A DNA stretch of 63,327 nt. It comes from a virus. Its lineage: Duplodnaviria; Caudoviricetes. Below are positions 1,704 to 45,657 of the stretch, one piece after another. The notes under the pieces were generated by a model, which was not told the origin of the DNA, searched no databases, and saw only the letters and a program-made list of their open reading frames with translations. The stretch spans positions 1 to 63,327 of the IMG/VR virus record IMGVR_UViG_3300037311_000078, one strand, 5' to 3'. The position numbers and the translations under genes were made by a program. Position 1 is the stretch's first letter. Every line of letters starts with the position of its first letter.

Positions 1704-3125
1704 ATGCAACTTAGACCATACCAACAGAAAGCTGATGACGAGATCGTTGCAGCCTGGGCATCCGGAAAGAAGCGGGTATTTCTACAGCTACCGACAGGTG
1801 GCGGCAAGACAGTCATGTTCAACCACCGCGCCGCCGTAGCTGCCAGAAAGGGCAAGCGTGTTCTGATCATCGCCGACCGCAGGGAGTTGATACAGCAGGC
1901 CTGGTCACGCCTTTGGCAAGCAGCGAACATCCACGCAGGAATCATCCTGTCTGGCCATCCGCAAAATCACGCGTTACCAATTCAGATTGCCAGTATCCAG
2001 ACGCTAAACCGGCGCACATTCCCGCCGAACATCGACATGGTAATAATCGACGAGGCGCGTGGATCCGTAGCAGACAGTTACAAGACGGTGTTCAATCATT
2101 ATAAGGATGCTTACTTCCTTGGCGTGGATGCCACGCCGATCAGGACAACCGGTCAGGGGTTCGATCACCTCTATGACCACATGGTTTTAGGACCTACCCT
2201 GAAAGAGTTGGAAGCATTGGGATCACTCGTGCCGGCGCGGCCATTTGTTAACCCGCTGGACCAAAGGATCCTCGACCGGGTGAAGATCACCGCAGGGGAT
2301 TATAACGAAAAGCAACTAGCAGAAGTGATGGCAGACAAAACCCTCACAGCTGACCTGGTGCAAAGTAAATTGAAGCATGCGCCTGGGCTGAAAACAATCG
2401 TGTTCGCCGTATCCATCGCCCACTCGAAGATGATTATCGAGCAGTACAATGCTGCCGGCATCAAGGCCATGCACGTGGACGGTGAGATGGCCATGGAAGA
2501 ACGGGCTTCGATCTTCAAACGGTTCAAAAACGGAGACTTCGAAGTACTATGTAACGTCGGTATTGCATGCTACGGATTTGACGAGCCTAGTATCCAATGT
2601 GTGCAGCTGGCACGGCCTACGAAGTCGCTGGCACTCTACCTGCAGCAAGTTGGACGCGGCACCAGGCCATACACATTGCCGACCGGGGAGAAGAAGGAGA
2701 AATACATACTGCTCGATCACGCCAACTGCGTGATGGAGTTCGGAATGCCGAACAGCGAACGCCGGTGGCAACTGAAAGGCAGAAAGAAGGAAGCGCAGCG
2801 CCCGCGCCAGTTCAAGATCAAGATGGGCGACGAAGAAAAGATCGTGACTGCCAAGGACTACCCGCAGGGAGTTGAAGGCTTGGAATTGCAGGAGATTGAC
2901 GAGCTGACATTGAGGATTGAAGAGTTTAAAAAAATCATGGAGCATGCCACAGCCAAAGGATACAAGCCATTGTCGTGCGTATTCAGATATACAGACAAGT
3001 TTCCGGATGTTGGAGCTGATGAGCTAAAGCAAATCGAAAAGCTACTCAACTTCAAACAGGGCTGGTGGCGCTACAAGCTGAAAGACCTGGAAGAAAACCG
3101 AAACAAAAAAGCTCAAACCGCATGA
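1704..3125 (+). CDS. superfamily 2 (DEAD/DEAH-like) helicase
   Basis: LRPYQ Q-motif, PTGGGKT, IIDEAR, ATP motif III, QQVGRGTR motif VI. Confidence 0.92.
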   Translation: MQLRPYQQKADDEIVAAWASGKKRVFLQLPTGGGKTVMFNHRAAVAARKGKRVLIIADRRELIQQAWSRLWQAANIHAGIILSGHPQNHALPIQIASIQTLNRRTFPPNIDMVIIDEARGSVADSYKTVFNHYKDAYFLGVDATPIRTTGQGFDHLYDHMVLGPTLKELEALGSLVPARPFVNPLDQRILDRVKITAGDYNEKQLAEVMADKTLTADLVQSKLKHAPGLKTIVFAVSIAHSKMIIEQYNAAGIKAMHVDGEMAMEERASIFKRFKNGDFEVLCNVGIACYGFDEPSIQCVQLARPTKSLALYLQQVGRGTRPYTLPTGEKKEKYILLDHANCVMEFGMPNSERRWQLKGRKKEAQRPRQFKIKMGDEEKIVTAKDYPQGVEGLELQEIDELTLRIEEFKKIMEHATAKGYKPLSCVFRYTDKFPDVGADELKQIEKLLNFKQGWWRYKLKDLEENRNKKAQTA

Positions 3126-3952
3126 TCGCATTTGCTTACTTCGGAGGAAAATACAGAATGATCGAGGACTTACTCCCGATGCTTCCTGAGTGCGACCACT
3201 ACTGCGAACCGTTCGCCGGAAGTCTGAGCATATTGCTGAATCGTCGGCCTTCTTCTATCGAGACGGCAAATGATCTTAACAGCGACTTGACCAACTTCTT
3301 CCGGGTACTGCGTACCAACGGGAAGAAGTTGGTCAAGTCGCTGCAATGCACGCCGTATTCGCGCGAGGAATTTGAATTGGCATGGCTTCCGTGCGAAGAT
3401 AGAACCGAACGCGCGCGCAGGTTTTTCATCAGGGTTACCATGGACATTGCAAAGGCCGGGCGTAAAACGGATAAGTCCTGGTCAGCAAACACGAAGTTTT
3501 GCCCAGGTGAGCACAGCTATGCACCGGCGAACTTTATCAAAAAAGTGAAGGGGCTACCTGAAATAGTTGACCGCCTGCGCATGGTTCAAATTGAGAACCG
3601 GCCGGCACTGAAGGTGGTCAAAAAATTTGATAACCCGAACACGCTATTCTACTGCGATCCACCATACATTCACGAAACCAGGTCGAGCAAAAAAGACTAC
3701 CTGCACGAGATGTCGTTTGACGATCATGTAGAACTCGCTGAGGCGCTAAATACCTGTAAGGCAATGGTTGCCCTATCTGGCTACGATCACCCTGCAATGG
3801 ACGATTTGTACAGCGCTCCGAAATGGTATAAGCATAAATTCAAAAGCAAGCAAGTGCCTATGTCACAGGGGAATGGCCTGGTGAGGCAGGAGGTTCTTTG
3901 GACGAATTACGACCCGGCCAAGAAGCTGGGGCAATTAAAACTGTTCACATAA
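3122..3952 (+). CDS. DNA adenine methyltransferase (Dam/D12 class)
   Basis: YFGGK, EPFAGS, ND, YCDPPY, EVLWTNY; ATGA overlap with the helicase stop. Confidence 0.92.
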   Translation: MIAFAYFGGKYRMIEDLLPMLPECDHYCEPFAGSLSILLNRRPSSIETANDLNSDLTNFFRVLRTNGKKLVKSLQCTPYSREEFELAWLPCEDRTERARRFFIRVTMDIAKAGRKTDKSWSANTKFCPGEHSYAPANFIKKVKGLPEIVDRLRMVQIENRPALKVVKKFDNPNTLFYCDPPYIHETRSSKKDYLHEMSFDDHVELAEALNTCKAMVALSGYDHPAMDDLYSAPKWYKHKFKSKQVPMSQGNGLVRQEVLWTNYDPAKKLGQLKLFT

Positions 3953-6258: not shown

Positions 6259-7203
6259 ATGAGTAAGGAGCGTGATTTTAAGGGGGTTTGGATACCTAAA
6301 CACCTTTGGTTAAACCCGGATTTATCTCCAATTGAAAAGTTGTTTCTTGCAGAAATAGACAGCTTGGACAACGATCCCCAAAAAGGATGCTTTGCATCAA
6401 ATGAATACTTCGGTGAGTTTTTCCAGATTTCGGAGGGGAGAGCAGCCAACATAATTTCATCGCTCAGAAAGCGAGGTTATATAATTCAGGTATTCTTTGA
6501 CGGTCGTAATCGAGGTATAAGACTTCACGAAAATGTGAAAGCAGGTTTCACGATAAATGGAGACAGCATTCACGATAGTGTGAAACCTGGTTTCACGAAA
6601 AAGGGAAAGCCGGTTTCACGAAAAGGTGAACATAATAATACAGTTGAAGATCAAAGGTTTAATAGTACAGGGTATAGCGAATCCTCCGCCGCTGACGCGC
6701 CGGCTATCGAGCTTCCAGTCGAAGAAGAAAAAAAGAAAAAAAGGGACGCACCGGGCCCGGGCGCCGCGCCAAGCTGGACAAAGACGGCGGCGACAATTTT
6801 TGACGAGGTCGGCGCTGAACTTTCTAAGGCTGAGGGGATTGATTACATACCGTTCAACTGGAAAGTCTGCAACGATCAGAATTTTGCTCACCTGAAAAAC
6901 CTACGCAAGCTGGCAATTGAGCCGGACTTCAAAACTAAAATTGGGCATATCCCAAATGATGAAGAGTTCTTTGCGAGTTTTCGTGCCGTAATGACGTTAT
7001 CCTTCAAGTATTTCAGAAAAATACAGAAGGAAACCAATGGCGCACTACACTACACACCGTCGAGTATTTACTCGTCGTACAACAAAATCAAAAACTTCAA
7101 AAATGGCACCAACAACAACAATGGAAGTATCGGTGGCCAACCAAGTAAGTTTGGTCAAGGAGGCAATCAGAACGGCAAGTACGATCCGGCCAAGGGCTAC
7201 TAA
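6259..7203 (+). CDS. phage replication initiator / replisome organiser (N-terminal wHTH)
   Basis: FKGVWIP..LW....LS..EK.....IDSL...GCFASNEY N-terminus; internal iterons. Confidence 0.8.
   Translation: MSKERDFKGVWIPKHLWLNPDLSPIEKLFLAEIDSLDNDPQKGCFASNEYFGEFFQISEGRAANIISSLRKRGYIIQVFFDGRNRGIRLHENVKAGFTINGDSIHDSVKPGFTKKGKPVSRKGEHNNTVEDQRFNSTGYSESSAADAPAIELPVEEEKKKKRDAPGPGAAPSWTKTAATIFDEVGAELSKAEGIDYIPFNWKVCNDQNFAHLKNLRKLAIEPDFKTKIGHIPNDEEFFASFRAVMTLSFKYFRKIQKETNGALHYTPSSIYSSYNKIKNFKNGTNNNNGSIGGQPSKFGQGGNQNGKYDPAKGY
6524..6630. repeat. iterons, putative replication origin
   Basis: TTCACGA at 6524, 6547, 6569, 6592, 6615 (22-23 bp period); three copies form TTCAC-N6-GTGAA. Confidence 0.75.
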
Positions 7204-9117: not shown

Positions 9118-9590
9118 AAGGATGGGATATGAAATCGGTAAATGAGGCTGCCAGGCGCGGCCTTTCAGTTAAAGCCCAGGACGGCAAGCCATTGGACATA
9201 TTACCGCAACCAACTCCGGTGTCGGTAAACAAGTTCAGGAACGAGCCTAAAACGGTTGACGGTATTCGTTTTGCCTCAAAGCTGGAAGCTAACCGGTACC
9301 TGCAATTGAAGATGATGAAGGCCGGTGGCCTCATTACCGATTTCATTATTCAGCAAACATATTACCTCGAGGTAAACGGCTTGCACATATGCCGGTATAT
9401 CGCCGATTTTGTAATCACCTGGGCCGATGGGAGGGTCACAATAGAAGATACAAAGGGGGTAGAAACCCCTGAGTTCAAGATAAAAAAGAAGTTGATGCTG
9501 GCAATACATGGCATCGAAATCGAATTAGTAAAACTGCAACAATCAAAACTTCACAACAATGGCAAAGTCAAAAAAAGTAGGCGCAGATAA
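9114..9590 (+). CDS. DUF1064-family PD-(D/E)XK nuclease-like protein
   Basis: NKFRN....VDGIRFASKLEA.RY, YIADF, EDTKG..T.EFKIKKKL. Confidence 0.85.
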   Translation: MKGWDMKSVNEAARRGLSVKAQDGKPLDILPQPTPVSVNKFRNEPKTVDGIRFASKLEANRYLQLKMMKAGGLITDFIIQQTYYLEVNGLHICRYIADFVITWADGRVTIEDTKGVETPEFKIKKKLMLAIHGIEIELVKLQQSKLHNNGKVKKSRRR

Positions 9591-11406
9591 CGCGCTCGCG
9601 CCGGTGGCAGGCATTGAAATGCTGGCCATCCACGAATTGGTTAACTCACCAACTAACCCAAGAAAAACCTACAGTATTCCAGAGCTCGAAGAGCTGGCAC
9701 GTTCTATCCGTGACCACGGCCTGATCAATCCAATTACCGTACGCCCGGTGTACAATGACGTTCACCCAAATATCCGTTCATGGTACGAGGTAGTTGCTGG
9801 TAACCGCCGATTCAAGGCTGCTCAGATTGCAGACATGGAGTTCGTGCCATGCATCGTGCGCGAACTGAGCGATGACCAGGTGCTTGATATCCAGATTGAC
9901 GAGAACCTTCACCGGCAAGATGTTCCACCGCTCGAAGAAGCGGACGCCTTCAAATCCCTCCTGGATGCCAAGCGGATCAGCATCAACGAGCTGGCCGCCC
10001 GGTTGAACAAGTCAGCGGCTTATATCTACCGTCGTATCAAGCTCACAAACCTTTCCGACAAATACCGGCCACACCTTCAATCCGGAGCGCTACCGGTTAC
10101 AACGGCAGAAATCTTTGCATCCTACCCGCAGGAAGCACAGGAAGTGATCTACAAAAACGTGTGCTACACGGAAGGTGAGCGTGTTATATTCTACGATTCG
10201 CGCAATGTTCGAAGCCGACTGGAGAGCCAAACCTGCAACAGCCTGCAAAAAGCAATATGGCCACTCGACCACGTTGATATGCAGCCTGGTTTACAGGCAT
10301 GCACTACATGCGAAAAGAATACTGCCGTGGCTACCCTCCTTTTCCCTGATGGCGCTGACGCTCCACGATGCACAGACAAAGCCTGTTGGAACATTAAGCA
10401 GACTGTTTGGATGGCTTTATCGATCCAGCAATGGAAGGCGTACTGCAAAAAAGAAGGCATAGAGGAGGTTTATGCCGACCTGTACTTCTACAGCTACGAC
10501 AAAAAGCCGTATGAGAAAATTTTTGATGGCTCCGAAAAGGTGCTTGGTAAGTTTGATTATGAGATTGTTGATAGGGATTACCCTGGTGCGTTCAAGGTGC
10601 TGTTTATTGGAGGGTCATCATGGGATGAAGAGAAGAATTCCTGGAACTTCAAAGTTGGATACATTGCATTGCGAAGGAAAAGCAGTGGCGAGCGAATTGA
10701 CTGGGAGATGGACAAGATACTGAAGGATGAAACCCTAACCCAGGAGGAGAAGGATCGTCAGGTGAAACTACTTGCCGAGAAGCGTCAGCGCCAACGGACT
10801 GAACAAGAGGTTCAGCACGAGCAAAAACAGTATCGGTTGAGACTGATTGAGAAATGCGCCGACGTAAAACCTGACTTTGATGCTGAACTTTTGCGGATAT
10901 TTCTTTACCGTGAACTTCTTGATCAGCAGACGCATACCCGTAAATGTTGGCATGTTATTTTCAGCGAAGAGGCTCAAGGCTGGAGGCCTGATTCTTTCCT
11001 CAAAGAGCACTATGACAATGGCGAGTGGAATGCCATGACGGTTGACGCATGGGTAAATATGCTGGAAGAAAAGGGAGAAATAACCCCGTTCGATGTATGG
11101 AATGATCTTCTTACTGAGGAAGAAATGAATCAGTTTGTGATAGAATCTCTATCAAAAGTGGCAGATTATAGGCTCAATCAGATGTTCACAATATCGGCGC
11201 TTTATAAAATCTATGACCGCCTTGGAAACTGGAACGATGATATCCCAACCGAACCCGTTGTAAGGTTTGCCAAACATGTAGGAATTGATACTGACAAAAC
11301 GTTGGAAGATGTAAAGCAAAAAATCTACGAAAAAAATCAAGGTAAGGCAGAGGCCGATCTTGACGACGACGAATATGATTACGACCTCAATGAGGATGAC
11401 GAATAA
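9559..11406 (+). CDS. ParB/RepB/Spo0J-family protein with long C-terminal extension
   Basis: NPRK, LARSI...GLINPITVR, VAGNRRFKAA, ENLHRQD..PLEEA, HTH, Cys cluster. Confidence 0.88.
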   Translation: MAKSKKVGADNALAPVAGIEMLAIHELVNSPTNPRKTYSIPELEELARSIRDHGLINPITVRPVYNDVHPNIRSWYEVVAGNRRFKAAQIADMEFVPCIVRELSDDQVLDIQIDENLHRQDVPPLEEADAFKSLLDAKRISINELAARLNKSAAYIYRRIKLTNLSDKYRPHLQSGALPVTTAEIFASYPQEAQEVIYKNVCYTEGERVIFYDSRNVRSRLESQTCNSLQKAIWPLDHVDMQPGLQACTTCEKNTAVATLLFPDGADAPRCTDKACWNIKQTVWMALSIQQWKAYCKKEGIEEVYADLYFYSYDKKPYEKIFDGSEKVLGKFDYEIVDRDYPGAFKVLFIGGSSWDEEKNSWNFKVGYIALRRKSSGERIDWEMDKILKDETLTQEEKDRQVKLLAEKRQRQRTEQEVQHEQKQYRLRLIEKCADVKPDFDAELLRIFLYRELLDQQTHTRKCWHVIFSEEAQGWRPDSFLKEHYDNGEWNAMTVDAWVNMLEEKGEITPFDVWNDLLTEEEMNQFVIESLSKVADYRLNQMFTISALYKIYDRLGNWNDDIPTEPVVRFAKHVGIDTDKTLEDVKQKIYEKNQGKAEADLDDDEYDYDLNEDDE

Positions 11407-11474: not shown

Positions 11475-12233
11475 ATGCCTTACACAGATCACACCAACCC
11501 GGATACAGCCGCGCAATTTTCGGCCATTGCGCCAGTTTATGACAGCGCCTTTAAAAACCCATTTGATCGTGCTGAGGAGGAGTTTATTTTCGACAACTAT
11601 ATCCTACCATACATAGGACGTAATGACGTACTCGATATCGGGTGTGGAACAGGATTGGTAAAAAAACTGAGCGATCGGTTTTTGTTTGGGCCATCGTCAT
11701 ATACCGGCGTCGATTACTCTGTGGATATGATTGTCCAAGCTCACAAAAACCATCCTGTTACAGCTTTGAGCCGCCCCCAGTTTTTCACCCAGGATATGCT
11801 GGACTTCATGGATAACTCAAAGCCAGAATCATATCACGCCATCGTGTCCATGTATTTCCCGATGAATTACTGTCAGTATCCACCCAAGCGGATATACCAG
11901 GCAGCAAAGCGAATTCTAAAGCCTGGTGGCAGGCTGATCACACACGTGGCCACTGCAAGGTATGCTGCTCGAAAGTCGCACATAGTTTCTGCCGGCAACA
12001 TGCGCCGGTATTACCACCACACCAACGATGCTCATTGGCTTGGAGACAACATACCAAAAGGAATGAAGCTCGGAGATGTGGCCGGTGTAAACTACTTCAT
12101 TGAGCGCCATCGCAAGGCGCTGGAATATTGCCCCAAAGCCATAAACAAAAAACTGTTTGCATACGACCAGCGCCGCGGTGTGCAGGCCGGTGCAATTCCA
12201 TACATGTACATCCTAAACATCGAAAAATTATGA
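11475..12233 (+). CDS. class I SAM-dependent methyltransferase
   Basis: VLDIGCGTG, GVDYS..M, RILKPGG; TACTTTTG box at 11463-11470. Confidence 0.88.
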   Translation: MPYTDHTNPDTAAQFSAIAPVYDSAFKNPFDRAEEEFIFDNYILPYIGRNDVLDIGCGTGLVKKLSDRFLFGPSSYTGVDYSVDMIVQAHKNHPVTALSRPQFFTQDMLDFMDNSKPESYHAIVSMYFPMNYCQYPPKRIYQAAKRILKPGGRLITHVATARYAARKSHIVSAGNMRRYYHHTNDAHWLGDNIPKGMKLGDVAGVNYFIERHRKALEYCPKAINKKLFAYDQRRGVQAGAIPYMYILNIEKL

Positions 12234-12949
12234 AACGTGCTATCTGCATTGGACTGAACTACGAAGGCTCTGATTACGAGCTTGGCGGATGCGTAAACGA
12301 CGCACTGGCCAATAAGAAGCGCCTGGAAGAAAAGGGTATCAAGGTTGACCTATATACCGAAACTATTGGAGCTAATGAGTTCCTGGATGCGCTGTACGCC
12401 ATGAAGGCTGTGCAGAAATCAGGCGACACGCTATTCATCACATATTCAGGACATGGAACTCAATTTGATGGACCCGAACATGATGGCAACGAGGGACTTT
12501 GTTTCTGGACAGGTGACGAAATCGAGGTGCTCGCAGACTTCGACCTGCAAAAAGAACTGTCACTATTCAAGGGTACGGTAGTCCTAATTCTGGATTCCTG
12601 TTTCTCCGGTGGTATGGCCAGGGCACTAAAGGTTGACCGCAAGAAGAAAGCAAAGTGCATACAGTGGAACCCTTTAACGATGACCAAGATCGAGCCGCGT
12701 AAGCACAAGGGTGTCGTTGGCGCCAAAGCCGTAACGAACAAGCGGTATAACCTTTTCGCATGCAGCGAGAATGAGGTATCCTGGGACACCGGCGTAAGTG
12801 GCCTATTTACCGCATCGTTTATGAAAGCATACGATGTCGGCCCGAGAACGATCGGAAAGATTATGGGTAAAGCATGGAACGACTGCTCGCCGGATCAGCA
12901 CCCAACATTTCACATTGTAAACGGAGGCGCTACAAAGCGCTTATTCTAA
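12230..12949 (+). CDS. metacaspase / peptidase C14
   Basis: AICIGLNY, L.GCVNDA, YSGHG (catalytic His), LDSCFSG (catalytic Cys), GLFT. Confidence 0.9.
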   Translation: MKRAICIGLNYEGSDYELGGCVNDALANKKRLEEKGIKVDLYTETIGANEFLDALYAMKAVQKSGDTLFITYSGHGTQFDGPEHDGNEGLCFWTGDEIEVLADFDLQKELSLFKGTVVLILDSCFSGGMARALKVDRKKKAKCIQWNPLTMTKIEPRKHKGVVGAKAVTNKRYNLFACSENEVSWDTGVSGLFTASFMKAYDVGPRTIGKIMGKAWNDCSPDQHPTFHIVNGGATKRLF

Positions 12950-14074
12950 ATGGTACGGGAATATCAACAGGAAACGGTACTGGAGGCAGCTCTGGACCGT
13001 TTCCGATATTTGTTTCAGAATGGTCGGGTCTGCGTCTCATTCTCCGGAGGCAAAGATTCAACCGTTTGCATTGAGCTGGCCGTAATGGCCGCTCAGTCGC
13101 TTGGTATTGCCCATGTTGACGTTGTGTACCGTGACGAGGAAGTTGTGTCACCAGAAACCACAGCATTCGCCCTACGGATGGCTGCGCGCCCAGAGATAAG
13201 ATTCCATTGGTGTGTGGCCAATCAGCCGATCATAAACATCTTTGACCGGAACGTTCCCTACGTGTGGACCTATGACCCATTGCTCGAACCTGAACAATGG
13301 ATGCAATTGCCACCAGATATTGCCCAGATCATTCCAGACATGAACATCGAGCGCCTGATCACAAAGGAACGGCTTGGTATTCCTGATGATGAAACCTTGT
13401 TCGTGGTGGTCGGTATTCGCACCTCAGAAAGCCTACGCCGTAAGTTCGCCATCAATGCGAGCAAAGGATACCTAACCAAGAAGATCAACGGCATATCGAA
13501 AGCCAGGCCTATCTACGACTGGGAGGATGATGACATTTGGAAGTTCCTAAAGGATTACCAATGCGACTACAACCGGGACTATGACGTAATGTGGCGCCTG
13601 GGTATTCCGAAGCGTAGCCTTCGCATTGCCCCACTCACCATGAACACTGCCGGAATTGGCCAACTACAGGCCATGGCTAAGGCTTACCCGAAATGGTTTG
13701 ACAAGCTGTGCGTTCGATGTAAAGGCGTACGCGCTGCGTCAAACTTTGGAAAGGCGGCGTGTGAACCCATACGCCGCGCCGGTGAAACCTGGGAGGATTG
13801 TTTCAACCGCACGTGCATAACTGAGGCACCCGAATGGATCCGCAAACGCGCTGAGGTGCTGATGCAAAAGTGGACAGCCGCCCAGGCGAAGCTCACCACT
13901 GATCCGCTACCTCAGAAGGGTGGCCATAACTTCAAAGGAATGTCATGGGAGAAGTTGACCAAGATCATGTACAACGGCGATCCGTTCTGCATGAAAACAG
14001 GCGAACTTCCGTATGTCGAGCCGCACGAATTTCGCCCCGATGGTGGATCGTGGCATGGTAAACCAACCTGGTGA
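12950..14074 (+). CDS. PAPS-reductase-family PP-loop protein (IbrA/DUF3440-like)
   Basis: SFSGGKDS, GIRTSES.RR, PIYDW...DIW, YN..YD. Confidence 0.88.
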   Translation: MVREYQQETVLEAALDRFRYLFQNGRVCVSFSGGKDSTVCIELAVMAAQSLGIAHVDVVYRDEEVVSPETTAFALRMAARPEIRFHWCVANQPIINIFDRNVPYVWTYDPLLEPEQWMQLPPDIAQIIPDMNIERLITKERLGIPDDETLFVVVGIRTSESLRRKFAINASKGYLTKKINGISKARPIYDWEDDDIWKFLKDYQCDYNRDYDVMWRLGIPKRSLRIAPLTMNTAGIGQLQAMAKAYPKWFDKLCVRCKGVRAASNFGKAACEPIRRAGETWEDCFNRTCITEAPEWIRKRAEVLMQKWTAAQAKLTTDPLPQKGGHNFKGMSWEKLTKIMYNGDPFCMKTGELPYVEPHEFRPDGGSWHGKPTW

Positions 14075-14090
14075 CGAAATTTCCGACATC

Positions 14091-14324
14091 ATGACGAAAA
14101 ACCCGACATTGAAAGAAACAGTGCGTATGCTGCTGAACGCATCCACACTTGAACAGCTGGAACTCTGCCGGCCACATATTACCCGACAAGACCTTGCAAC
14201 ATCGGTCGTCTTGACAGAAGTATTCAATTATCAATTTGAAGCATTATGTCAGAAGTCAACAAGAATGTTATCGCCAAAGGCAAAAAGACTATCGAGAAGA
14301 AGTTCAACACTCTCGAAGCTCTGA
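14091..14324 (+). CDS. small hypothetical protein
   Basis: ATG at 14091 fills the gap between IbrA- and IbrB-like genes; overlaps the next gene. Confidence 0.4.
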   Translation: MTKNPTLKETVRMLLNASTLEQLELCRPHITRQDLATSVVLTEVFNYQFEALCQKSTRMLSPKAKRLSRRSSTLSKL

Positions 14325-15142
14325 GGGTATTCTACATACCACACTCCATGATATCACCCAACCAATACAATCCGAACCGGCAAAGCGAGTTCGAGTTTGA
14401 GCTATTGATAAAGTCCATGAGCGAGGACGGCTTTACCCAGCCGATTGTTACCCGCCCACTGTTCACTGATGAAATGGCCTGTAATGCCCTGGGCTTGCCG
14501 GTAGGCACCAACCATAAAGAAATAGACTGGATGACTGCTGCCAACAAGCTGGACTCAGGATTCATGGTAGTGGATGGTGAGCACCGGTGGAAAGCCGCCG
14601 CAAAACTTGGTTACCCTGAGGTGCCTTGCGTTGTAACATACATGACCGACGCACAGATGCGGATCGCTACCCTGCGGCATAACCGGGCCAGGGGGACAGA
14701 GGATATAACCCTGACCGCTGATGTACTACGCGACCTTGAAAAGTTGGGCGCCCTCGATCATGCCGCTGACAGCCTCCAGATGGATGATGTTGAAATACAA
14801 AAGCTACTCGCTGAGGCAACCGCAACCGATGACCTGGGAGGTAGTGAGAACTTCAATCAGGCATGGGAAGTTAATACCGCCAACGTCCCAGGATCGAACC
14901 CTGACGACAACTTTAACGTCGGCATGACCACCAAGGCCGTAGAGGAACAACGGCGCATCCAGAACGAAACCAGCGCCGCCAAAACAGCGGAAGAAAGGCA
15001 GATGGTACAGCGAACATCTGACTTGGTCAGGATCATGCTGGTATTCCAGGGCGATGAGGCCAAGATCGTTCAACAGGTCCTTGGAAAAGACCAAGCTGAA
15101 AAACTGCTCGAATTGTGCCGCAAAGAGCTGGCCACCCAATAA
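14246..15142 (+). CDS. ParB/Srx-domain protein (IbrB-like)
   Basis: PNQYNPN, DGFTQPIV, VVDGEHRW, ATLRHNRARG. Confidence 0.87.
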   Translation: MSEVNKNVIAKGKKTIEKKFNTLEALRVFYIPHSMISPNQYNPNRQSEFEFELLIKSMSEDGFTQPIVTRPLFTDEMACNALGLPVGTNHKEIDWMTAANKLDSGFMVVDGEHRWKAAAKLGYPEVPCVVTYMTDAQMRIATLRHNRARGTEDITLTADVLRDLEKLGALDHAADSLQMDDVEIQKLLAEATATDDLGGSENFNQAWEVNTANVPGSNPDDNFNVGMTTKAVEEQRRIQNETSAAKTAEERQMVQRTSDLVRIMLVFQGDEAKIVQQVLGKDQAEKLLELCRKELATQ

Positions 15143-15148
15143 TGCAAC

Positions 15149-15724
15149 GTGAAGGGCGACACCAAAAACAAACGGACTTCTGTACAGATACAGGAGGATC
15201 GAGAGTATATCTGCAAGCACTACATGCGGGGCATATCCCACGTGAAGATTGCCGAGCAGATGGTGATCGACTTAAAACGAGACTACATACTATCCCGCCA
15301 ACAGATTGAGTACGACATAAAAGAGATCGTTAAGGGGCTTCGTGATTCGTATGAAGCGCAATTTAACGACTATCTTTATCAGCAGTTACGGAAGATTGAC
15401 GAGCTTGAATCTGAGGCGTGGGCAGCATGGGAGGCCAGTAAAAAGGCGAGGAAGAAAACCACCATCATCACCAAAAAGAACCAGGTGAAACAGGAGCCTG
15501 GGGAGGATCAGCCAAAGGATCCGCAGGATGTTATAATTGAATCAGCAGATCAGACAGGAGACATCCGGTATTTTGATAAAATTCAGTGGTGCGTGGAAAC
15601 CAGGTTGAAGCTGCTCGGGTTCTTTAGAATGAACCAATACGCGAAAACTTTGGACCAGGGAGAAGATGACGAACAACACCAAACCGGCGTTGTTATATAC
15701 ATACCTGACAACAATCGCCAATGA
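15149..15724 (+). CDS. HTH protein, terminase small subunit-like
   Basis: N-terminal HTH, RLKLLG, C-terminal VVIYIPDNNR. Confidence 0.55.
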   Translation: MKGDTKNKRTSVQIQEDREYICKHYMRGISHVKIAEQMVIDLKRDYILSRQQIEYDIKEIVKGLRDSYEAQFNDYLYQQLRKIDELESEAWAAWEASKKARKKTTIITKKNQVKQEPGEDQPKDPQDVIIESADQTGDIRYFDKIQWCVETRLKLLGFFRMNQYAKTLDQGEDDEQHQTGVVIYIPDNNRQ

Positions 15725-16230
15725 AACGCAAACTAACCTCTTTGTCCTGGCCGGTAACCATATCCAACGGTGAACTCCACGTGCCACGTGAACGCATGTT
15801 CAAGGACATAGCCCAGCTGGCAGACAACCCGGAAGCTATGCTTCTGTTGAAGCCAATTGATAATCCAAAGACGCATCGACAGTTGCGTACATTCCACGGT
15901 CCAATCATCGAGCAGGTTCAGTCGTTCATCATGGCTACCGATGGGGTATACAAGTCGGTAGACCGCATCAAGTACGACCTGAAAGAACAGTTCCTGCAAA
16001 AGCGGAAGAAATACTGGGACGATGGAAGCCCGGTGATCTGGAAGATTCAGCACCCGACAAAGCCTGGTGTCTGTATGGAATGGCACGTGGAGGAGGTGCC
16101 TTCGCTTTCCGAACTCTCAATTGACGAGGCCCGCGGATTCATAAATGATATACTGGAATTCTACCTGCATGAGCGCGGCCTGACCATAGTCATTGATCCA
16201 GACGAGGCCGACCCTAAATTCAAAGACTAA
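15721..16230 (+). CDS. hypothetical protein (possibly NinB-like)
   Basis: ATGA-coupled ORF; KT.RQ...FH and SLSELS..E...FI patterns. Confidence 0.55.
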   Translation: MKRKLTSLSWPVTISNGELHVPRERMFKDIAQLADNPEAMLLLKPIDNPKTHRQLRTFHGPIIEQVQSFIMATDGVYKSVDRIKYDLKEQFLQKRKKYWDDGSPVIWKIQHPTKPGVCMEWHVEEVPSLSELSIDEARGFINDILEFYLHERGLTIVIDPDEADPKFKD

Positions 16231-16517
16231 CCTGGTAGGATAGTTACCACGATCATCTGATCGAACTGGTAACGCGGTTGCCCCTTTACCGTTCCACCGA
16301 ATTTACTGAGCGTTGACATGATCCACGAATCAGTCAACCGATTCGGCTTTCCAGCCTTTTCTTTCTTGCGCTCGCTGACTATGGCATACACCCGCTTATA
16401 GTCAGGATTGGTCGTAGTCGCTCCCCTGAATAAATCCGGGAATACATTTTCGATGAAATGATCAAGCGCCACGCGCAATTCGTTGTCTGTTTCGGTTTCT
16501 GTATGTTGTTGATTCAT
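16227..16517 (-). CDS. small divergent protein, putative regulator
   Basis: only convincing minus-strand gene; TACATTTG box (16523-16530, minus) 5 nt before the ATG. Confidence 0.65.
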   Translation of the reverse strand: MNQQHTETETDNELRVALDHFIENVFPDLFRGATTTNPDYKRVYAIVSERKKEKAGKPNRLTDSWIMSTLSKFGGTVKGQPRYQFDQMIVVTILPG

Positions 16518-17261
16518 AGCTGCAAATGTAGATTCAATTCGCCGATTCAAAAAATAATTTGAATCTCATTTGCTTTATTCAAATTCTTGTTTGAATCTTT
16601 GCAGAATCAACAATGGAATAATGACTACAGGAAAAGACATAGCGAATCGGCTCGGCATGCACCCGACCAGTCTCCAAAAGGCTGGAATCGGAATGGCCAT
16701 CGAGATTCAAGATACTGAATTGATTCGGTTTCTTGAAAGCAGAATCAAGCCATCGGGCGCATGGCGTCCGGAGAAAGCAGCCGTCGCTGCACAGTGGTAT
16801 TCAGAACTTACCGGAGCGTCGCTACCAGCACCAAGCCAGGATCACGAGCCAAATGCAAAGGAGCAGTTAACCCAGATACCCGCACGGCCACGTAAACCAC
16901 GGCAACAAATTGAATTTTCACCGGTGCAAAATGGTGCAATTGAAACTCACTGGCTGCGCAGCGACGCAACAATGGTCGCTCTATTGGTTGTTGCAACCGG
17001 CGCACAGATTCTGCATACCAGCAGCTTCTTTTATTTCATCACGCCGATTCCGGGGGAAGTGTTCAGAATCGTCACGGCGATTCTCGTTGGATTCGCTGTT
17101 GATTCAGCGGCACTGATTAAGACGATTCGAAGTGGAAACAGAATCTACCTGATCATATTCGCCATCGGTCACTTCTTCGTGAATCTGTCCGCGCACTTCC
17201 GATTCCTGGAAAGAACCGAATCAGACATCGACACCACGACATGGCTATTCTTTGGAGAATC
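16327..17261. repeat. dense cluster of GAWTC pentamers (25 counted)
   Basis: manual count of GAATC/GATTC; about 2 expected by chance. Confidence 0.9.
16523..16601. promoter_or_regulatory. divergent promoters with two palindromic operators ATTCAAA-N6-TTTGAAT
   Basis: palindromes at 16545-16564 and 16577-16596; -7 boxes TACATTTG (minus) and AATCTTTG (plus, 16594-16601). Confidence 0.7.
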
Positions 17262-17331
17262 ATGCCTGCTTTCATTTCTCGTCGCATTCGCAGTTTATTC
17301 ATACAGCGAGGCGTTTGCCTTTAAAAAGTAA
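16621..17331 (+). CDS. N-terminal HTH-like domain plus about 4 C-terminal TM helices
   Basis: TGKDIANRLGMHPTSL; Pro-rich linker; four hydrophobic segments. Confidence 0.7.
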   Translation: MTTGKDIANRLGMHPTSLQKAGIGMAIEIQDTELIRFLESRIKPSGAWRPEKAAVAAQWYSELTGASLPAPSQDHEPNAKEQLTQIPARPRKPRQQIEFSPVQNGAIETHWLRSDATMVALLVVATGAQILHTSSFFYFITPIPGEVFRIVTAILVGFAVDSAALIKTIRSGNRIYLIIFAIGHFFVNLSAHFRFLERTESDIDTTTWLFFGESCLLSFLVAFAVYSYSEAFAFKK

Positions 17332-17345
17332 TTCGTCAATCAGTC

Positions 17346-17666
17346 ATGGACTTCGTACTTCAAACCAGAACAGAAATTAAAACCCCATCGCAGCAGCTGT
17401 TGGAACGCCCTGCAGTATGGAGCGGCACAACAGCCGACTGGGGTACTATCGGCAGTGACATTGCTCCTATCACAAACCAGGAGACAAATGCGCTCAAATC
17501 AAAGTTGAAAACCACCACCCCTGATTTCATCAAAGCGGGGCGGATCAAACACCTGATGCTCCAGGGCAAAGGGCCATCGGATATCGCCAAGGCATTGCGC
17601 AACTTCGGGTGGGGGTATGGCCTGTCAACCATCAAGCATTATCACGCCGCCCTATCGGTGGCATAA
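17346..17666 (+). CDS. small protein with C-terminal HTH
   Basis: IKHLMLQGKGPSDIAKAL..GYGLSTIKHY. Confidence 0.6.
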   Translation: MDFVLQTRTEIKTPSQQLLERPAVWSGTTADWGTIGSDIAPITNQETNALKSKLKTTTPDFIKAGRIKHLMLQGKGPSDIAKALRNFGWGYGLSTIKHYHAALSVA

Positions 17667-17680
17667 TCAGTTCACGAGAG

Positions 17681-17704
17681 GGGTGCAAATTCTTTTTTGC
17701 ACCC
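17681..17704. promoter_or_regulatory. palindrome GGGTGCAAA-N6-TTTGCACCC
   Basis: perfect 9-bp inverted repeat in the intergenic gap. Confidence 0.6.
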
Positions 17705-17735
17705 TTAAATCATTCAAAATCAACGCCTTTAAAAA

Positions 17736-19448
17736 ATGATACGTGCAAAATTTTCCATAGAACTGCACCGCAATCCACCGGTGCTTCACCTGACCGAGAG
17801 GGGTAGTGTGTATCAGATTCGCTTGAATGATGGCAGCACATCCATGATGATAGGCGATATCCCCGTTCCTGTTCAGGGGTGCCCATTCCCAAGCGAGCTT
17901 GCACGTGCGCGGTTCTGGGCATTCCTACATCGAAACTTCAACAACCTGGTGACAACCTTTGCAATCGTATTGTCATTGGTCATGCTTCATGTTTTGTTGA
18001 TGATCACATACCCGGGTGAAATGATCGGCGCTACGGTATCTGTATTCTCATTCTGGATGAATGCAGCACTTGTTGTAACCGGATCAGCCGCGTTGATCGC
18101 ATGGACAGTGCGAAGATTCTGGGGTGGTGTAACAATCAAATTCGGTGTTGATGAAGAAATGCAACTGCTGACGGCCGGAAGTATCAATATCGCCCCGGAT
18201 GTGTTGATCGCGTCTGAATCACTCGATGAATCGCCGGAAAGCTTCGAAGGTCGCATGCGGTCGGCGTTTGAAGAAACGACCGGCACGCAGAAATGGGTAC
18301 TCGTCGTCCCGCGCGGCCAATGGAAATTCATGGTCATCAAGAATTCAGATTTGCCAGACGCCAAACCAATGTATTCTGAGTTTCTGCGCAGCGCCCCATT
18401 CGATCCTATGCCATTCGGTGAATTGGAGATCGCACGAGATTCAAACCTGTACACCAAAGAATCGTATGGCAGTTACCTAGAGTACCTGCGTCACCTCACT
18501 GATGAATACCGCATTTGGTCTGAGGCTGCCAAGCAAGGCGCCGTGGATCCATTTGCATCAATCGCCAACGCTATGAAAAAAGCAATGAACACCATCACCC
18601 TACTCTTGATGTTTACCCTGAGCATGAGCGCCCAGAAAACAACCCAGCTGGCAGCATACCTTGGCGATCGCGCAACGATCTCCGCACCGGAAGCTGGCAA
18701 GCAGGTTGACTTCGTATTCGAGCGCCGGGAAATATCAGTTCGCGCAAACGGAAAGGCCAACTATATCGACCTGATACAGTCGGTACCATTTTTCTCAGAT
18801 GCTGATGACGCCGGGAGGCTGCTCCTGGTAAAGGTGGATGGCCAGAAGATATTGCCGAAAGACCCGGCAAAAGCAGTTGAGCCAAAGGCTGAATTGAAAA
18901 CAGAAAAGATCGGAGATGGATCGGTATCAGAGGTTCCTGTTGACCTGAATAGCAGCATGTTTGACCAGATACCAGATTCTGCGGCATTTCAGAAGATGAA
19001 GTACGCAGACCTGGCCGACAAGCGCCGGCAATGGGCAAAGGTTGAACCGATGGTAGATTACTACATGTGGAAGTTCTATCTATGGCTCCCACTTCTTGCC
19101 GTAATATTCGCATACTTCTGGTGGGTAGCATCATTGGGCAGCGCCGAAAGCGTGGATGATCTATTAGGGCATGCCGTGGTAGGTAACATAATCCTTAAAT
19201 CATACGTGATCAGCAAAGCAATGCTGTTTGTATTGCTTATCCTGATCGGGGCGGTATTCTCCCTCCAATGGGGAGTTACCTACTACTACACCTACGACGT
19301 CTCGTTTTGGATGCTGGTTCGTATCGCATTAATTGCATGGCTGTCGTACCAGGTAAGCAAGAAGGTGCTGCCTAACCTGAAACGGGATACTCCTGCAGGA
19401 GGTGTAGTTTACAATGGACGATACAATAACCGTCAATTACCTGGATAA
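17736..19448 (+). CDS. polytopic membrane protein of unknown function (570 aa)
   Basis: 2 N-proximal TMs, a central hydrophobic segment, about 3 C-terminal TMs. Confidence 0.75.
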   Translation: MIRAKFSIELHRNPPVLHLTERGSVYQIRLNDGSTSMMIGDIPVPVQGCPFPSELARARFWAFLHRNFNNLVTTFAIVLSLVMLHVLLMITYPGEMIGATVSVFSFWMNAALVVTGSAALIAWTVRRFWGGVTIKFGVDEEMQLLTAGSINIAPDVLIASESLDESPESFEGRMRSAFEETTGTQKWVLVVPRGQWKFMVIKNSDLPDAKPMYSEFLRSAPFDPMPFGELEIARDSNLYTKESYGSYLEYLRHLTDEYRIWSEAAKQGAVDPFASIANAMKKAMNTITLLLMFTLSMSAQKTTQLAAYLGDRATISAPEAGKQVDFVFERREISVRANGKANYIDLIQSVPFFSDADDAGRLLLVKVDGQKILPKDPAKAVEPKAELKTEKIGDGSVSEVPVDLNSSMFDQIPDSAAFQKMKYADLADKRRQWAKVEPMVDYYMWKFYLWLPLLAVIFAYFWWVASLGSAESVDDLLGHAVVGNIILKSYVISKAMLFVLLILIGAVFSLQWGVTYYYTYDVSFWMLVRIALIAWLSYQVSKKVLPNLKRDTPAGGVVYNGRYNNRQLPG

Positions 19449-20947: not shown

Positions 20948-21246
20948 AAATTATTCTTATCTTCATAGCCGGGTATATCGCCCGGCACATTATCGGCATA
21001 CTATTCAACCGGGTTTTCAGGAAACCAAGCGCCACCCAGGTAGAGGTTACAATGGATGATATTCAGGATTCGGTAATATCCTACGACCGTGGGAAAAACT
21101 GGTTCGTCCGAACGAAAGACGGCGTTTTTGTAAAAGTTGGCTATAACTCAATTCAATCAATACTCGATTTCTATGAGAATCAAAATAAAACAGGCGCTGA
21201 TCACACATCCGCTGACGCGGCCAGCAATCAGGACAGTAAACGGTAA
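20944..21246 (+). CDS. small protein with N-terminal membrane anchor
   Basis: MKIILIFIAGYIA; ATGA-coupled. Confidence 0.55.
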   Translation: MKIILIFIAGYIARHIIGILFNRVFRKPSATQVEVTMDDIQDSVISYDRGKNWFVRTKDGVFVKVGYNSIQSILDFYENQNKTGADHTSADAASNQDSKR

Positions 21247-21946
21247 GCACTACAAACTGCGCGCGGTCCGCGCAATTATTTCCCATTGGACGGCCAATAC
21301 CAACCGTGGCGCCAACGCGATGGCCAATCGTAATTACTTCAACAACGGATCGCCCGGGCCCGGTGGAACGTTCAGAGCGGCCAGCGCTCACTACTGCGTG
21401 GACAGCAACGAGATCGTGCAGTGCCTACCTGATGACGAGGTTGGTTTCCACATCGGAGGATCTCGCTACTATGAATCTGGGCGCCGTATCATGGCCGGTT
21501 ATAAAAGTTTGACGCCAAATTATTTCGCCATAGGTTTTGAGATGTGCGTCAACAGCGATGGCGATTGGAACAAAACATATCAGTCCAGCGCAAAGCTGGC
21601 AGCATATCTGTTGTTCAAGCACAAGTTGACAATCAATGATCTGCTACGTCATTACGACATCACCGGCAAGGATTGCCCGAAAATGATGATCGCAGAGAAT
21701 GAATGGCAGAAATTCAAAGACACGGTATCTGAACATCTCGCTATTTTGAATAAGGTTTGTTTCCACGCAAGAGTTGGCGCATCAAATCTGAATGCCCGAT
21801 CTGGACCAGGTACACAACACCAGGTCGTCAGGGTTTTAAATCAGGGCGAACCTGTTGTATGTTATCCTGGTGCATCAACAAACGGTTGGGTTCCTATCGG
21901 CGAAAACGAATTTGTCAACTCTAAATATCTCATTTATGAAATGTAA
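21173..21946 (+). CDS. N-acetylmuramoyl-L-alanine amidase (Amidase_2) with SH3b domain; endolysin
   Basis: IISHWTAN, ASAHYCVD, IGFEMC, RHYDITGKDCP; LNARSGPGT. Confidence 0.92.
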   Translation: MRIKIKQALITHPLTRPAIRTVNGKHYKLRAVRAIISHWTANTNRGANAMANRNYFNNGSPGPGGTFRAASAHYCVDSNEIVQCLPDDEVGFHIGGSRYYESGRRIMAGYKSLTPNYFAIGFEMCVNSDGDWNKTYQSSAKLAAYLLFKHKLTINDLLRHYDITGKDCPKMMIAENEWQKFKDTVSEHLAILNKVCFHARVGASNLNARSGPGTQHQVVRVLNQGEPVVCYPGASTNGWVPIGENEFVNSKYLIYEM

Positions 21947-25138: not shown

Positions 25139-26605
25139 ATGGACATTCGCCCGCAGGCTGGTTTCCAGCACAAGTTTCTCGCGTCACCCGCAGACATAGT
25201 GATTGGTGGCGGCGCTGCGGGCGCTGGGAAGTCATACGCGCTTCTCCTGGAGAACTTACGCCACGTCCGAAATGGGAAGTTTGGTTCGGTAAACTTCCGG
25301 CGCACAATGCCCCAAGTGCGCAACGAGGGCGGCCTATGGGATACATCAACGCAGATATATCTCGGTTTGCCCAACGCTTTGCGTCCGCGTCCACTGGAAC
25401 ACAGCGCTATGTGGGCGTTTCCTTCCGGTGCCAGGGTGAAGTTCAGCCACATGCAGTACGAGAAAGACATGTACAGCTGGCAGGGTTCACAGGTTCCATT
25501 GATCGGATTTGACGAGCTGACACACTTCCTGTCCGCGCAGTTCTGGTACATGCTCACCCGTAACCGTTCCACCTGCGGAGTGAAGCCATACGTCCGCGCC
25601 ACGACAAACCCACAAAGCTACGGGTGGGTCAAAGACCTGATTCAGTGGTGGATATACCCAGACAACTACCCTGACGAGAAGCTGCGAGGATATCCGATAC
25701 CAGAACGCGATGCGGCCGTTCGCTATATGACCAGGTACAAGAAGCGGATACTATGGGGCGACACTCCTGAGCAAGTGATAACACAGTTGCCGCCTGATCA
25801 GCAGAAGGAATGGGATAAGGATTCGATAAAAAGCCTTTCGTTCATCGGAGGCACGATGGTTGACAACCCGGAGCTTTTGCTGAAGGACCCATCGTACAAG
25901 GCAAACCTGCTCGCCCAGGATGAGGAGACCGCCCTGCAACTATTGAAAGGGTGCTGGTATTCGTCGGCCGGCGACAACGAACTATTCAGCGACAATGCCC
26001 TGCGGGATATGTTCACTAATGACTTCGTGCCAGGCGGCGATAGATATATGACGGCTGACATTGCCATGGAGGGAAGTGATCTGTTCGTGATCGTGATATG
26101 GAGCGGTTGGCGTGCTGAGCACATCTACACAATGTCGAAGTCTGACGGCCGCATGGTGTTGGAGAAAATGCAGCAGATGGCGAAGAAGCACGGCATACCA
26201 GGCAGCAACATCGCATTCGATAGCGCCGGTGTCGGCAACTTCCTGCGGGGCTGGATGAAAAACTCCATTGACTTCCGTGGAGGCGACCCCGCAGAACCAG
26301 AGGACAAGGTGAAGCTGATGTACAAGAACTTGAAAACGCAGTGTGCCTACATATTCTCACGAAAGATGAAAGAGTGCGAGGTGTATGTTGCGATTGATAA
26401 TGAGGATAATCAGGACCGTGTGCTGGAGGAGTTCAAGGCTCACAAGAAGAAAGGGCTTGATACACAGAACAAATTGACGATGAGCGATAAAGACGAGGTG
26501 AAGTCGGAGATTGGATATTCGCCTGATTACTTTGATGCGTTCACGATGAGGGCTGTTTTCGACATTAAAAAAAGAACACGCAAAAGAAGCACAACTACAA
26601 AATGA
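25139..26605 (+). CDS. terL: terminase large subunit
   Basis: PQAGFQ, GGAAGAGKS, FDELTHF, ATTNP, DIAMEGSD, DSAGVG, SPDYFDA. Confidence 0.95.
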   Translation: MDIRPQAGFQHKFLASPADIVIGGGAAGAGKSYALLLENLRHVRNGKFGSVNFRRTMPQVRNEGGLWDTSTQIYLGLPNALRPRPLEHSAMWAFPSGARVKFSHMQYEKDMYSWQGSQVPLIGFDELTHFLSAQFWYMLTRNRSTCGVKPYVRATTNPQSYGWVKDLIQWWIYPDNYPDEKLRGYPIPERDAAVRYMTRYKKRILWGDTPEQVITQLPPDQQKEWDKDSIKSLSFIGGTMVDNPELLLKDPSYKANLLAQDEETALQLLKGCWYSSAGDNELFSDNALRDMFTNDFVPGGDRYMTADIAMEGSDLFVIVIWSGWRAEHIYTMSKSDGRMVLEKMQQMAKKHGIPGSNIAFDSAGVGNFLRGWMKNSIDFRGGDPAEPEDKVKLMYKNLKTQCAYIFSRKMKECEVYVAIDNEDNQDRVLEEFKAHKKKGLDTQNKLTMSDKDEVKSEIGYSPDYFDAFTMRAVFDIKKRTRKRSTTTK

Positions 26606-44698: not shown

Positions 44699-45401
44699 AT
44701 TCGGTAGCGTAGATACGCTGATGACACAACAGGAGGTGGTAGACCACGCGCCGGTTGATCCGAATTCTTATGCGGATCAAAGGCTGCCATTCATTGCGAT
44801 GCGCGAGGAAAAGTTATTCAGGAAGTGCCTGGGTATAACGTTCTACAAAACATTGATGGCTGACCGGGTGATATACCGGATGGTATCAGGAACAGGGGTG
44901 ACAGTATATGTGAACTTCAAAGAGGGTACATCCTACTTGATAAACGCCGTGGTCCTGTACAAAAACCGATTGTACAAAGCTAAAGCGGCGACATCAGGAA
45001 CACAGATACCAACGGATGAGTCATACTGGATGATCGCGCCAAAGTTTGTGAGTGACGACCATAATTATCTTTGGGAACGATATTTGCGGACTATACTTGC
45101 GTTCTCAATCTCTAACGATAGTCTGTTTTACAGACTGGTTTCAGATACGGCGCAGGGATTGGTTCAGAAAGAGGAGGAAGGGAAGTTCAAAGCAGTGGCC
45201 ATCAAAGATGCCGGCCGGTTACGGCAAGAGTATCAAACCAATATTGACGATTTGATGGAGACTATGCACGAATTTATGAAGGAGAATAAAGACCTTTACC
45301 CTGACTACGCGCCGCTTACTGATGACTGCGTAAACTGCAATATCAACAAACCTCGTCATTATGGCTTTAACACTCGGAGGAGAAACACATCACTGCGATA
45401 A
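44682..45401 (+). CDS. putative head-tail adaptor
   Basis: follows the portal; LG..FY..L pattern. Confidence 0.5.
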   Translation: MALTYEFGSVDTLMTQQEVVDHAPVDPNSYADQRLPFIAMREEKLFRKCLGITFYKTLMADRVIYRMVSGTGVTVYVNFKEGTSYLINAVVLYKNRLYKAKAATSGTQIPTDESYWMIAPKFVSDDHNYLWERYLRTILAFSISNDSLFYRLVSDTAQGLVQKEEEGKFKAVAIKDAGRLRQEYQTNIDDLMETMHEFMKENKDLYPDYAPLTDDCVNCNINKPRHYGFNTRRRNTSLR

Positions 45402-45657
45402 ACTGAAGGAACTGGCAGACGCTACATCTTTGACGTTGAAGCTGATAGACCAGGGATTTAGATTGCACAAGGTAGATGAGTTTACGGCCGGGTTGAGATT
45501 GACAATTTGCGAAGGATGTGTTGAGGGATGGATACCAGAGGAGCGGCGTTGCGCAAAGTGCTGTTGTCCGATGGACTTCAAAGTAACATTGAAATACGAC
45601 CCCATAAAGGGGATAATGAAAAAAACGCCTATCCAGTGCCCTATTGGGAAATGGTGA
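45361..45657 (+). CDS. Cys-rich Zn-binding protein
   Basis: RL.IC.GC, RC.KC.C, CPIGKW. Confidence 0.65.
   Translation: MALTLGGETHHCDKLKELADATSLTLKLIDQGFRLHKVDEFTAGLRLTICEGCVEGWIPEERRCAKCCCPMDFKVTLKYDPIKGIMKKTPIQCPIGKW

Follow-up and report, generated by a model that had tools for sequence, protein, structure and literature searches.

A tailed phage genome (Duplodnaviria, Caudoviricetes; IMG/VR record IMGVR_UViG_3300037311_000078) carries a dense array of the pentamer GAWTC (GAATC or GATTC) around one of its genes. This array is a selected cis element, the density of which is maintained largely by synonymous codon choice. The window that was analysed is the whole virus record, which comprises 63,327 bp and is rated 100% complete. 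The gene in question (16621–17331, plus strand) encodes a protein of 236 amino acids with a predicted N-terminal helix-turn-helix (HTH)-like domain, a disordered linker and four transmembrane (TM) helices, and is referred to as the HTH-4TM gene.

Distribution of GAWTC in the phage genome

A preliminary description of this DNA had listed 25 GAWTC sites in both orientations where about two were expected. All 25 positions proved to be exact matches: the interval 16327–17261 (935 bp) contains 12 GAATC and 13 GATTC on the plus strand, and the record outside the interval predicts 1.84 sites. GAGTC and GACTC do not occur in this interval. Over the whole record the number of GAWTC sites is ordinary (148 versus 153.9 ± 11.9 in dinucleotide shuffles). 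Any other 935-bp bin of the record holds at most 6 of them, and among all strand-symmetric pentamers GAATC/GATTC is the most locally enriched one in the genome. The composition profile (GC and AT skew) does not change at the array.

The sites lie largely within coding sequence, as had been noted before. Seventeen are located in the HTH-4TM gene, three in a small open reading frame (ORF) on the minus strand (16227–16517, 96 amino acids from its ATG, the sole minus-strand gene nearby) and five in the 103-bp intergenic region between these divergent ORFs. Within the HTH-4TM gene they fall into all three codon phases (3, 6 and 8 sites in phases 0, 1 and 2, respectively), which agrees with the preliminary description, as does the arrangement in two sub-clusters. 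The first block, array A (16511–16746, 11 sites), extends from the start of the small ORF across the divergent intergenic region into the HTH-4TM gene, of which it takes in the first 42 codons; array B (17007–17261, 12 sites) occupies the part of the gene encoding the four TM helices. They are separated by a spacer of 260 bp (16747–17006) with no GAWTC at all, which encodes the end of the N-terminal domain and the variable disordered linker. Two outlying sites (16327 and 16340, spanning 16327–16344) lie towards the 3’ end of the small ORF. Within each block the density amounts to about one site per 21 bp.

Synonymous codon choice in the HTH-4TM gene

When synonymous codons were drawn from the codon usage of the genome, the HTH-4TM gene contained 3.03 ± 1.55 sites (maximum 10 in 5000 resamplings) compared to the 17 observed. 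Permuting synonymous codons within the gene yielded 4.37 ± 1.78 sites, with none of 5000 permutations reaching 17, and shuffling the codon order yielded 2.33. The earlier claim that the pentamers are not dictated by the protein sequence was thus borne out, as the excess survives codon-preserving shuffles. The protein is somewhat rich in contexts in which GAWTC can be encoded (21 per 236 codons versus 0.035 per codon elsewhere). Of its 21 encodable contexts, 17 (81%) are spelled as GAWTC, in comparison to 102 of 572 (18%) for 48 further phage genes, which makes this gene a clean case of two codes, regulatory and protein, superimposed on each other. In four homologous genes the ratios of realised to encodable contexts were 13/21, 17/20, 10/17 and 11/14. 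Encodable contexts in the spacer part are mostly left unrealised. Because this least constrained coding stretch is empty of sites, the two-block layout itself appears to be kept. For the small ORF alone the three sites are not significant, since 1008 of 5000 permutations reach this number.

Conservation and turnover of sites in related loci

A 64-kb viral contig (L002 and L003 denote one and the same contig) encodes relatives of the ParB-like neighbour of the array locus (79% identity), of the HTH-4TM protein (55%) and of the small ORF (51%). In L002 GAATC/GATTC is likewise the top clustered 5-mer, with 23 copies in the best 935-bp window at the equivalent location. The pairwise alignment (59.8% identity, 1102 aligned columns) placed 11 of the 25 sites at shared columns, two of them with the central A/T swapped; 14 sites are present only in the phage record and 12 only in L002. 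The outliers at 16327 and 16340 have no counterpart at the aligned positions in L002. As only 11 of 25 sites are common to a relative with 55% protein identity, positions turn over and density is kept.

Five metagenome loci (L004–L008) and a genome-bin contig (L009/L010) were found via the HTH-4TM protein, and the array is present in all of them; the site layout of L009/L010 is that of L007. The preliminary description had proposed to look for an enriched pentamer in homologous loci. This was found to be GAWTC itself, the top clustered pentamer in all six loci of a second scan, a set that included L003 and left out L009. Sites are carried in the array A block by L002, L005, L006, L007/L009 and L008. 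Spacers in the other loci measure 254–395 bp and hold 0–1 GAWTC, and in L002, L005, L006 and L008 array B continues beyond the stop codon and reaches the following gene. L004 retains 10 of 11 array B spacings.

Near relatives, which are contigs from wastewater and activated sludge and mostly 90–95% alike, showed no change within a pentamer in any of 40 listed differences, a partial count with 85 further differences outside these 40. Twenty of the 40 are located within the array spans, where pentamers make up about 22% of the bases, and the chance of none falling into a pentamer is about 0.007. The contigs of relatives cease to match at 16695 and resume at 16996 (80% likeness), i.e. across the spacer.

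More distant relatives were not recovered at the DNA level. Scans of viral contigs with the HTH-4TM protein, its remote relatives P0041 and P0042 and the sub-family alignments A8 and A9 returned no DNA of remote relatives, and a scan of viral contigs with the neighbouring protein encoded at 17736–19448 gave no match. A tblastn search of 50,697 phage records, for which the HTH-4TM protein, P0097, P0042, P0060 and P0043 served as queries, detected no relative; P0097 matched no more than a GIY-YIG stretch of a Xanthomonas phage. A distant DNA search of phage records with 15700–18000 gave no match. Among 401 genomes of the phylum of the bin that holds L009/L010 (G001), the HTH-4TM protein was found in G001 alone, plus one weak match interrupted by a stop codon.

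Flanking bases and candidate operators

Pooling 126 array sites from five loci, we obtained the symmetric extended word HGAWTCD, roughly YYGAWTCRR. G at position –1 occurs in 9% and C at position +5 in 2% of these sites, whereas the corresponding values for the 123 sites outside the array in the record are 28% and 23%. Because of this difference we consider the flank preference to be array-specific as well as symmetric. One-mismatch variants of the word are not in excess in the array (11 versus 10.7 and 8 versus 11.6 expected), although this test has low power.

An imperfect palindrome of 22 bp, the ends of which are of the GATTC/GAATC type, occurs twice in the divergent promoter region (16544–16598, copies 32 bp apart) and was detected as direct repeat D2 and inverted repeat I1. 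The first palindrome (16544–16564) is identical in all five aligned loci, the intergenic core being invariant. From their sequence and position these palindromes are candidate operators, and the pentamer matches the putative operator half-site, as previously described. A scan of the locus for sigma-70 promoters and terminators did not rise above shuffle level, and Rfam gave no match within 15000–19000.

Forms of the word with a central G or C (GASTC) are scarce in the rest of the genome. Outside 16301–17300 we counted 14 on both strands, while 52.7 are expected from a Markov model and about 118 from base composition. GAWTC outside the array is not depleted (123 versus 145.5 from the Markov model and about 121 from base composition). 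Since GASTC is depleted genome-wide and GAWTC is not, the true word could be GANTC. The depletion would be consistent with avoidance of a host restriction enzyme that cuts GAGTC, or with protection confined to the W forms. Related loci are likewise poor in GASTC, with 0–2 per array span. The tetramer CTAG is also very rare outside the array (12 on both strands versus 112.5).

The HTH-4TM protein family

The neighbouring gene product had been described as an HTH-TM protein, and structure prediction supports an HTH-like domain joined to a 4-TM domain. The AlphaFold model has a mean predicted local distance difference test (pLDDT) value of 73 overall, about 88 for residues 1–64 and below 50 for residues 70–103, with helices in residues 115–233. 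In the model the N-terminal domain (N-domain, residues 1–64) consists of a strand, two helices, a short strand and two further helices. The putative recognition helix has three residues that never vary among 31 close homologues (43–100% identity), H14, T16 and S17, and two that hardly do, P15 and Q19. A profile search returned 94 cluster representatives (E ≤ 1e-3), of which 35 reached E ≤ 1e-10, and an alignment of 36 sequences of the family contains conserved Q, H, N and S columns. Judged by these sequences, the protein belongs to an unnamed phage family with an HTH-like N-domain, a variable linker and a conserved 4-TM domain with polar motifs.

The N-domain also appears in other combinations. 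In the remote relatives P0041 and P0063 it is paired with unrelated TM domains, and in six of 90 scanned remote relatives (P0097, P0109, P0115, P0120, P0126, P0127) it follows a GIY-YIG nuclease domain and precedes TM helices at the C-terminus. Such a placement is as would be expected of a DNA-targeting module, and these fusions are candidates for membrane-anchored, sequence-directed nucleases. Pfam matches to Cro, HTH_11 and HTH_37 were weak, an Atlas search with the N-domain gave no usable match, and a PDB profile search with the HTH-4TM protein yielded only E ≥ 1.1. Weak leads pointed to DUF2637 (ESM Atlas score 0.76; Foldseek against BFVD rank 7, E 0.42). This family was rejected, as the Pfam model (PF10935) is absent in the 31 members (E ≤ 1) and in the 90 remote relatives (E ≤ 1e-3). 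Structural relatives that comprise the TM part only and lack the HTH, namely gp103 of Tenacibaculum phage pT24 and gp23 of Rhodococcus phage RGL3, have no k-mer array at their genes, which is weak negative support for a linkage between array and HTH.

Possible function of the array

The interpretation we favour, at a little less than an even chance, is that the array consists of cis-acting binding sites for the co-encoded membrane-anchored HTH protein and serves both autoregulation and membrane tethering. A binding array that tethers phage DNA to the membrane had been suggested in the preliminary description, and the present results support that view in part. The roughly 25 GAWTC would then be protein-binding sites in two blocks, most likely bound by the N-terminal HTH-like domain of the HTH-4TM protein encoded on the same DNA, and the four TM helices would hold this protein in the inner membrane. 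The palindromes in the divergent promoter would act as operators for autoregulation of the HTH-4TM gene and the small divergent ORF. Single pentamers on either side of the 260–400 bp spacer would load further copies of the protein, and in this way the array region of the phage DNA could stay attached to the membrane. The tethering may be helped if transcription and translation of the HTH-4TM gene are coupled to insertion of its product into the membrane. The HTH-4TM protein is suggested as the binder because the array surrounds the gene in all loci that were identified via the protein, and because the recognition-helix residues are near-invariant in the 31 homologues and the pentamer is likewise invariant. 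A binding array is also favoured because replication origin and packaging have better candidates elsewhere in the genome, i.e. iterons and the terminase.

We further consider it possible, though doubtful, that the system is a self-encoded genome anchor: the HTH-4TM protein would bind its own codon-written sites and nail its template to the inner membrane, methylation of GAWTC might gate this binding, and the HTH-4TM family including the GIY-YIG forms would represent general DNA-to-membrane modules. What is unusual is that the array is mostly written into the frame of a putative membrane-anchored DNA-binding protein and is kept there by synonymous codons through extensive divergence. If the HTH-4TM protein does bind its own gene, it would offer a compact, testable system for the positioning of tailed-phage DNA at the membrane and assign a function to an unnamed protein family of at least 94 sequence clusters.

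Several observations weigh against binding by the HTH-4TM protein. The pentamer and the putative recognition helix are both invariant in every locus compared at the DNA level, and such co-invariance does not amount to covariation. The short word, the symmetric flanks and the lack of a variant excess resemble an enzyme site as much as an HTH half-site. The sites show no helical phasing (p ≥ 0.07 in all five loci), so that an ordered nucleoprotein complex on one face of the DNA is not indicated. The N-domain has no significant Pfam family, and a Foldseek search of the whole model against the PDB was uninformative, with nothing below E 1.9. The binder could instead be the small ORF product, the product of the ORF downstream of the HTH-4TM gene or a host protein.

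Ranked second, and on the whole unlikely, is the view that the array is a cluster of adenine-methylation sites of a host CcrM-type or a phage methyltransferase which is read by its full or hemimethylated state. A methylation-sensitive GANTC switch had been named initially as an alternative and has gained some weight. The methylation view partly overlaps a binding array and is partly compatible with it, as the reader could be the HTH-4TM protein; the word could also be GANTC from which the S forms were removed by restriction avoidance. According to excerpts of PMC8919816, CcrM variants of marine Alphaproteobacteria have been shown to methylate GAWTC, which is also the TfiI site, and such hosts avoid the word in their genomes. 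The phage itself encodes a D12-class (Dam-like) adenine methyltransferase at 3065–3952 and an N6_Mtase (PF02384, HsdM-like) at 55349–56218 (E 9.6e-15). The word is short, exact and symmetric including its flanks, the sites are unphased, and the density within the blocks is close to that of GATC in oriC; depletion of GASTC without depletion of GAWTC would fit protection of the W forms only. In addition, the L009 module contig belongs to bin G001 (labelled Pseudomonadota), in which a complete CcrM orthologue (E 2e-164 to 6PBD) is encoded on a contig of 780 kb. This host link is weak, however: the bin is untidy, with 29 N6_N4_Mtase matches, many of them on short contigs, and probably holds much phage or mobile DNA, so that the CcrM link does not establish the host. 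Neither a CcrM-type enzyme (PF01555) nor GcrA was found in the phage record, and the PDB relatives of the Dam-like enzyme are Dam and DpnII-type methylases, which are GATC enzymes. Furthermore, a methyltransferase alone would leave unexplained both the array-specific flank bias and the strict placement around one gene in every locus. For a restriction decoy, which had been proposed initially, we found no support, as GAWTC is not avoided elsewhere in the genome.

Still less probable is that the array serves another binder or transaction. It might then be a partition centromere, a binding site of the small ORF product or of the protein encoded by the downstream ORF, a packaging site or a secondary origin. 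Two short-repeat arrays that flank the genes of the system are the layout of pB171 par2, and that of R1 parC is similar; blocks of 11 and 12 sites around the operon are found here as well. For par2 the gene order parC1-parA-parB-parC2 is given in an excerpt of PMC4270457. The phage encodes a true ParB of 615 amino acids with ParB_N and HTH_ParB domains (9559–11406) and a ParB-like protein with ParB_N only (14246–15142). Against a centromere, a ParA-type partition NTPase was not detected in the whole record with PF13614, a search that did not include ParM and CbiA models, nor does any neighbour belong to such a family, and HTH_ParB proteins bind palindromes of about 16 bp rather than pentamers. 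In favour of the small ORF product are the conservation of its gene and the fact that no other gene nearby is transcribed divergently, but the protein occurs in just 9 database clusters including its own, i.e. 8 homologues. Its model (pLDDT 83.6) consists of three helices and a hairpin and lacks the N-terminal strand-helix-helix of a small ribbon-helix-helix protein; there was no Foldseek match to the PDB below E 1 and no ribbon-helix-helix or HTH match. The downstream ORF (17346–17666, plus strand, 106 amino acids) has an HTH-like C-terminal motif by eye and no Pfam or PHROG family match, and it is just 21–26% identical among three loci while the word never changes. An array function as origin or pac site is unlikely. 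A likelier origin is marked by 23-bp repeats (4.4 copies, 6524–6629) inside the O-like initiator gene (6259–7203), the classic place of an iteron origin; we rejected an iteron-type origin at 16.3–17.3 kb since the 17–23-bp repeats lie elsewhere and the skew does not change at the array. A pac site was rejected because the large terminase gene terL (25139–26605) is 8 kb away. Molecule ends were not seen either, although the contigs on which this rests say little about them. Finally, a cluster without function, arising as a by-product of amino-acid composition, codon bias or local mutational bias, is essentially excluded. The protein does provide somewhat more word-encoding contexts than others, but the excess survives three codon-level null models and reaches into the intergenic region, the opposite-strand ORF and, in other loci, the next gene. 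Moreover, density is held through site turnover at 55% protein identity, and the spacer stays free of sites despite having the weakest coding constraint.

Comparison with known systems

Plasmid centromeres, iteron origins and oriC all contain binding arrays of short words. The GAWTC array resembles plasmid partition centromeres (pB171 par2 with parC1/parC2, R1 parC, the pSM19035 omega heptads) in its many copies of a short word and in its two blocks that flank or overlap the genes and promoter of the system; centromeres double as operator and loading platform. In contrast to them, neither a partition NTPase nor a ribbon-helix-helix protein was found at the array locus, GAWTC occurs in both orientations, unphased and within coding sequence, and the candidate binder is a membrane protein.

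A dense cluster of a short symmetric word, in these cases a methylation word, is likewise found in the GATC cluster of Escherichia coli oriC, which is read by SeqA, and in the hexamers with Dam sites of P1 pac. Both act through their methylation state, and hemimethylated oriC associates with the membrane. Unlike these, the array locus has no origin or pac features and does have a flank preference, and its methylation is merely putative. With the CcrM/GANTC system of Alphaproteobacteria the array shares the word GAWTC, according to the excerpts of PMC8919816, and possibly a host, given the bin with CcrM. Hosts of that kind avoid GAWTC in the same excerpts, whereas the phage concentrates it and lacks a CcrM-type enzyme and GcrA.

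The p16.7 and p1 proteins of phi29 offer a parallel in that a phage integral membrane protein binds phage DNA or terminal protein and anchors it at the membrane, as stated in an excerpt of PMC4974454. Neither Foldseek nor the PDB profile search revealed a sequence or fold relation between these proteins and the HTH-4TM protein. The p16.7 protein is not known to have a sequence-specific site array. Tens of copies of the site of one protein are also found in the stoperators of mycobacteriophage L5 and in the ram sites of Bacillus subtilis RacA, a protein that anchors DNA at a cell-envelope landmark. Those sites are 13–14 bp long and spread over a genome or hundreds of kb, whereas the GAWTC array is composed of a 5-bp word within 1 kb around one gene. 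No described counterpart was found in the literature on GAWTC, phage GANTC clusters and DUF2637.

Genomic context and host

Nearly all genes of the record are located on the plus strand, and the array locus sits between a replication and DNA-modification block and an endolysin/terminase block. The upstream block comprises the exonuclease part of a polymerase and a helicase, the Dam-like methyltransferase, the O-like initiator, the true ParB, and a PAPS-reductase-like protein (12950–14074) followed by the ParB_N-only protein. Between 9559 and 15142 an S-adenosylmethionine-dependent methyltransferase and a caspase-like Peptidase_C14 protein (12128–12949) are encoded as well. Downstream of the array follow the endolysin (21137–21946), a head protease and the large terminase.

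Concerning the host, a Shine-Dalgarno (SD)-like tetramer precedes only 2 of 43 ATG starts, and the leaders are rich in A and C. A Bacteroidota host, first read from the scarce SD motifs, was dropped because SD-poor Alphaproteobacteria exist too. Relatives of the terminase are scattered over viruses of Rhizobium, Bacteroides and Methanoculleus. In 200 kb of the large contig of bin G001, both GAWTC and GASTC fall short of the Markov expectation, with ratios of 0.59 and 0.78, respectively.

One metatranscriptome library contributed a contig (95–99% alike) that spans 17175–17400, where the HTH-4TM gene ends and the next ORF begins; its presence is no proof of transcription. In the Rhodococcus phage RGL3 we noticed a cluster of 36 CCCCC within 1 kb (2.3 expected) in a gene-poor stretch at about 44000–45600; these C5/G5-containing words are unrelated to the GAWTC array. 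The 63,327-bp record has no end repeats. It does contain two tandem arrays of a 24-bp unit, one at 1431–1545 (4.8 copies, 100% matches) and one at 63204–63327 (5.2 copies, 98%), the latter of which reaches the end of the record.

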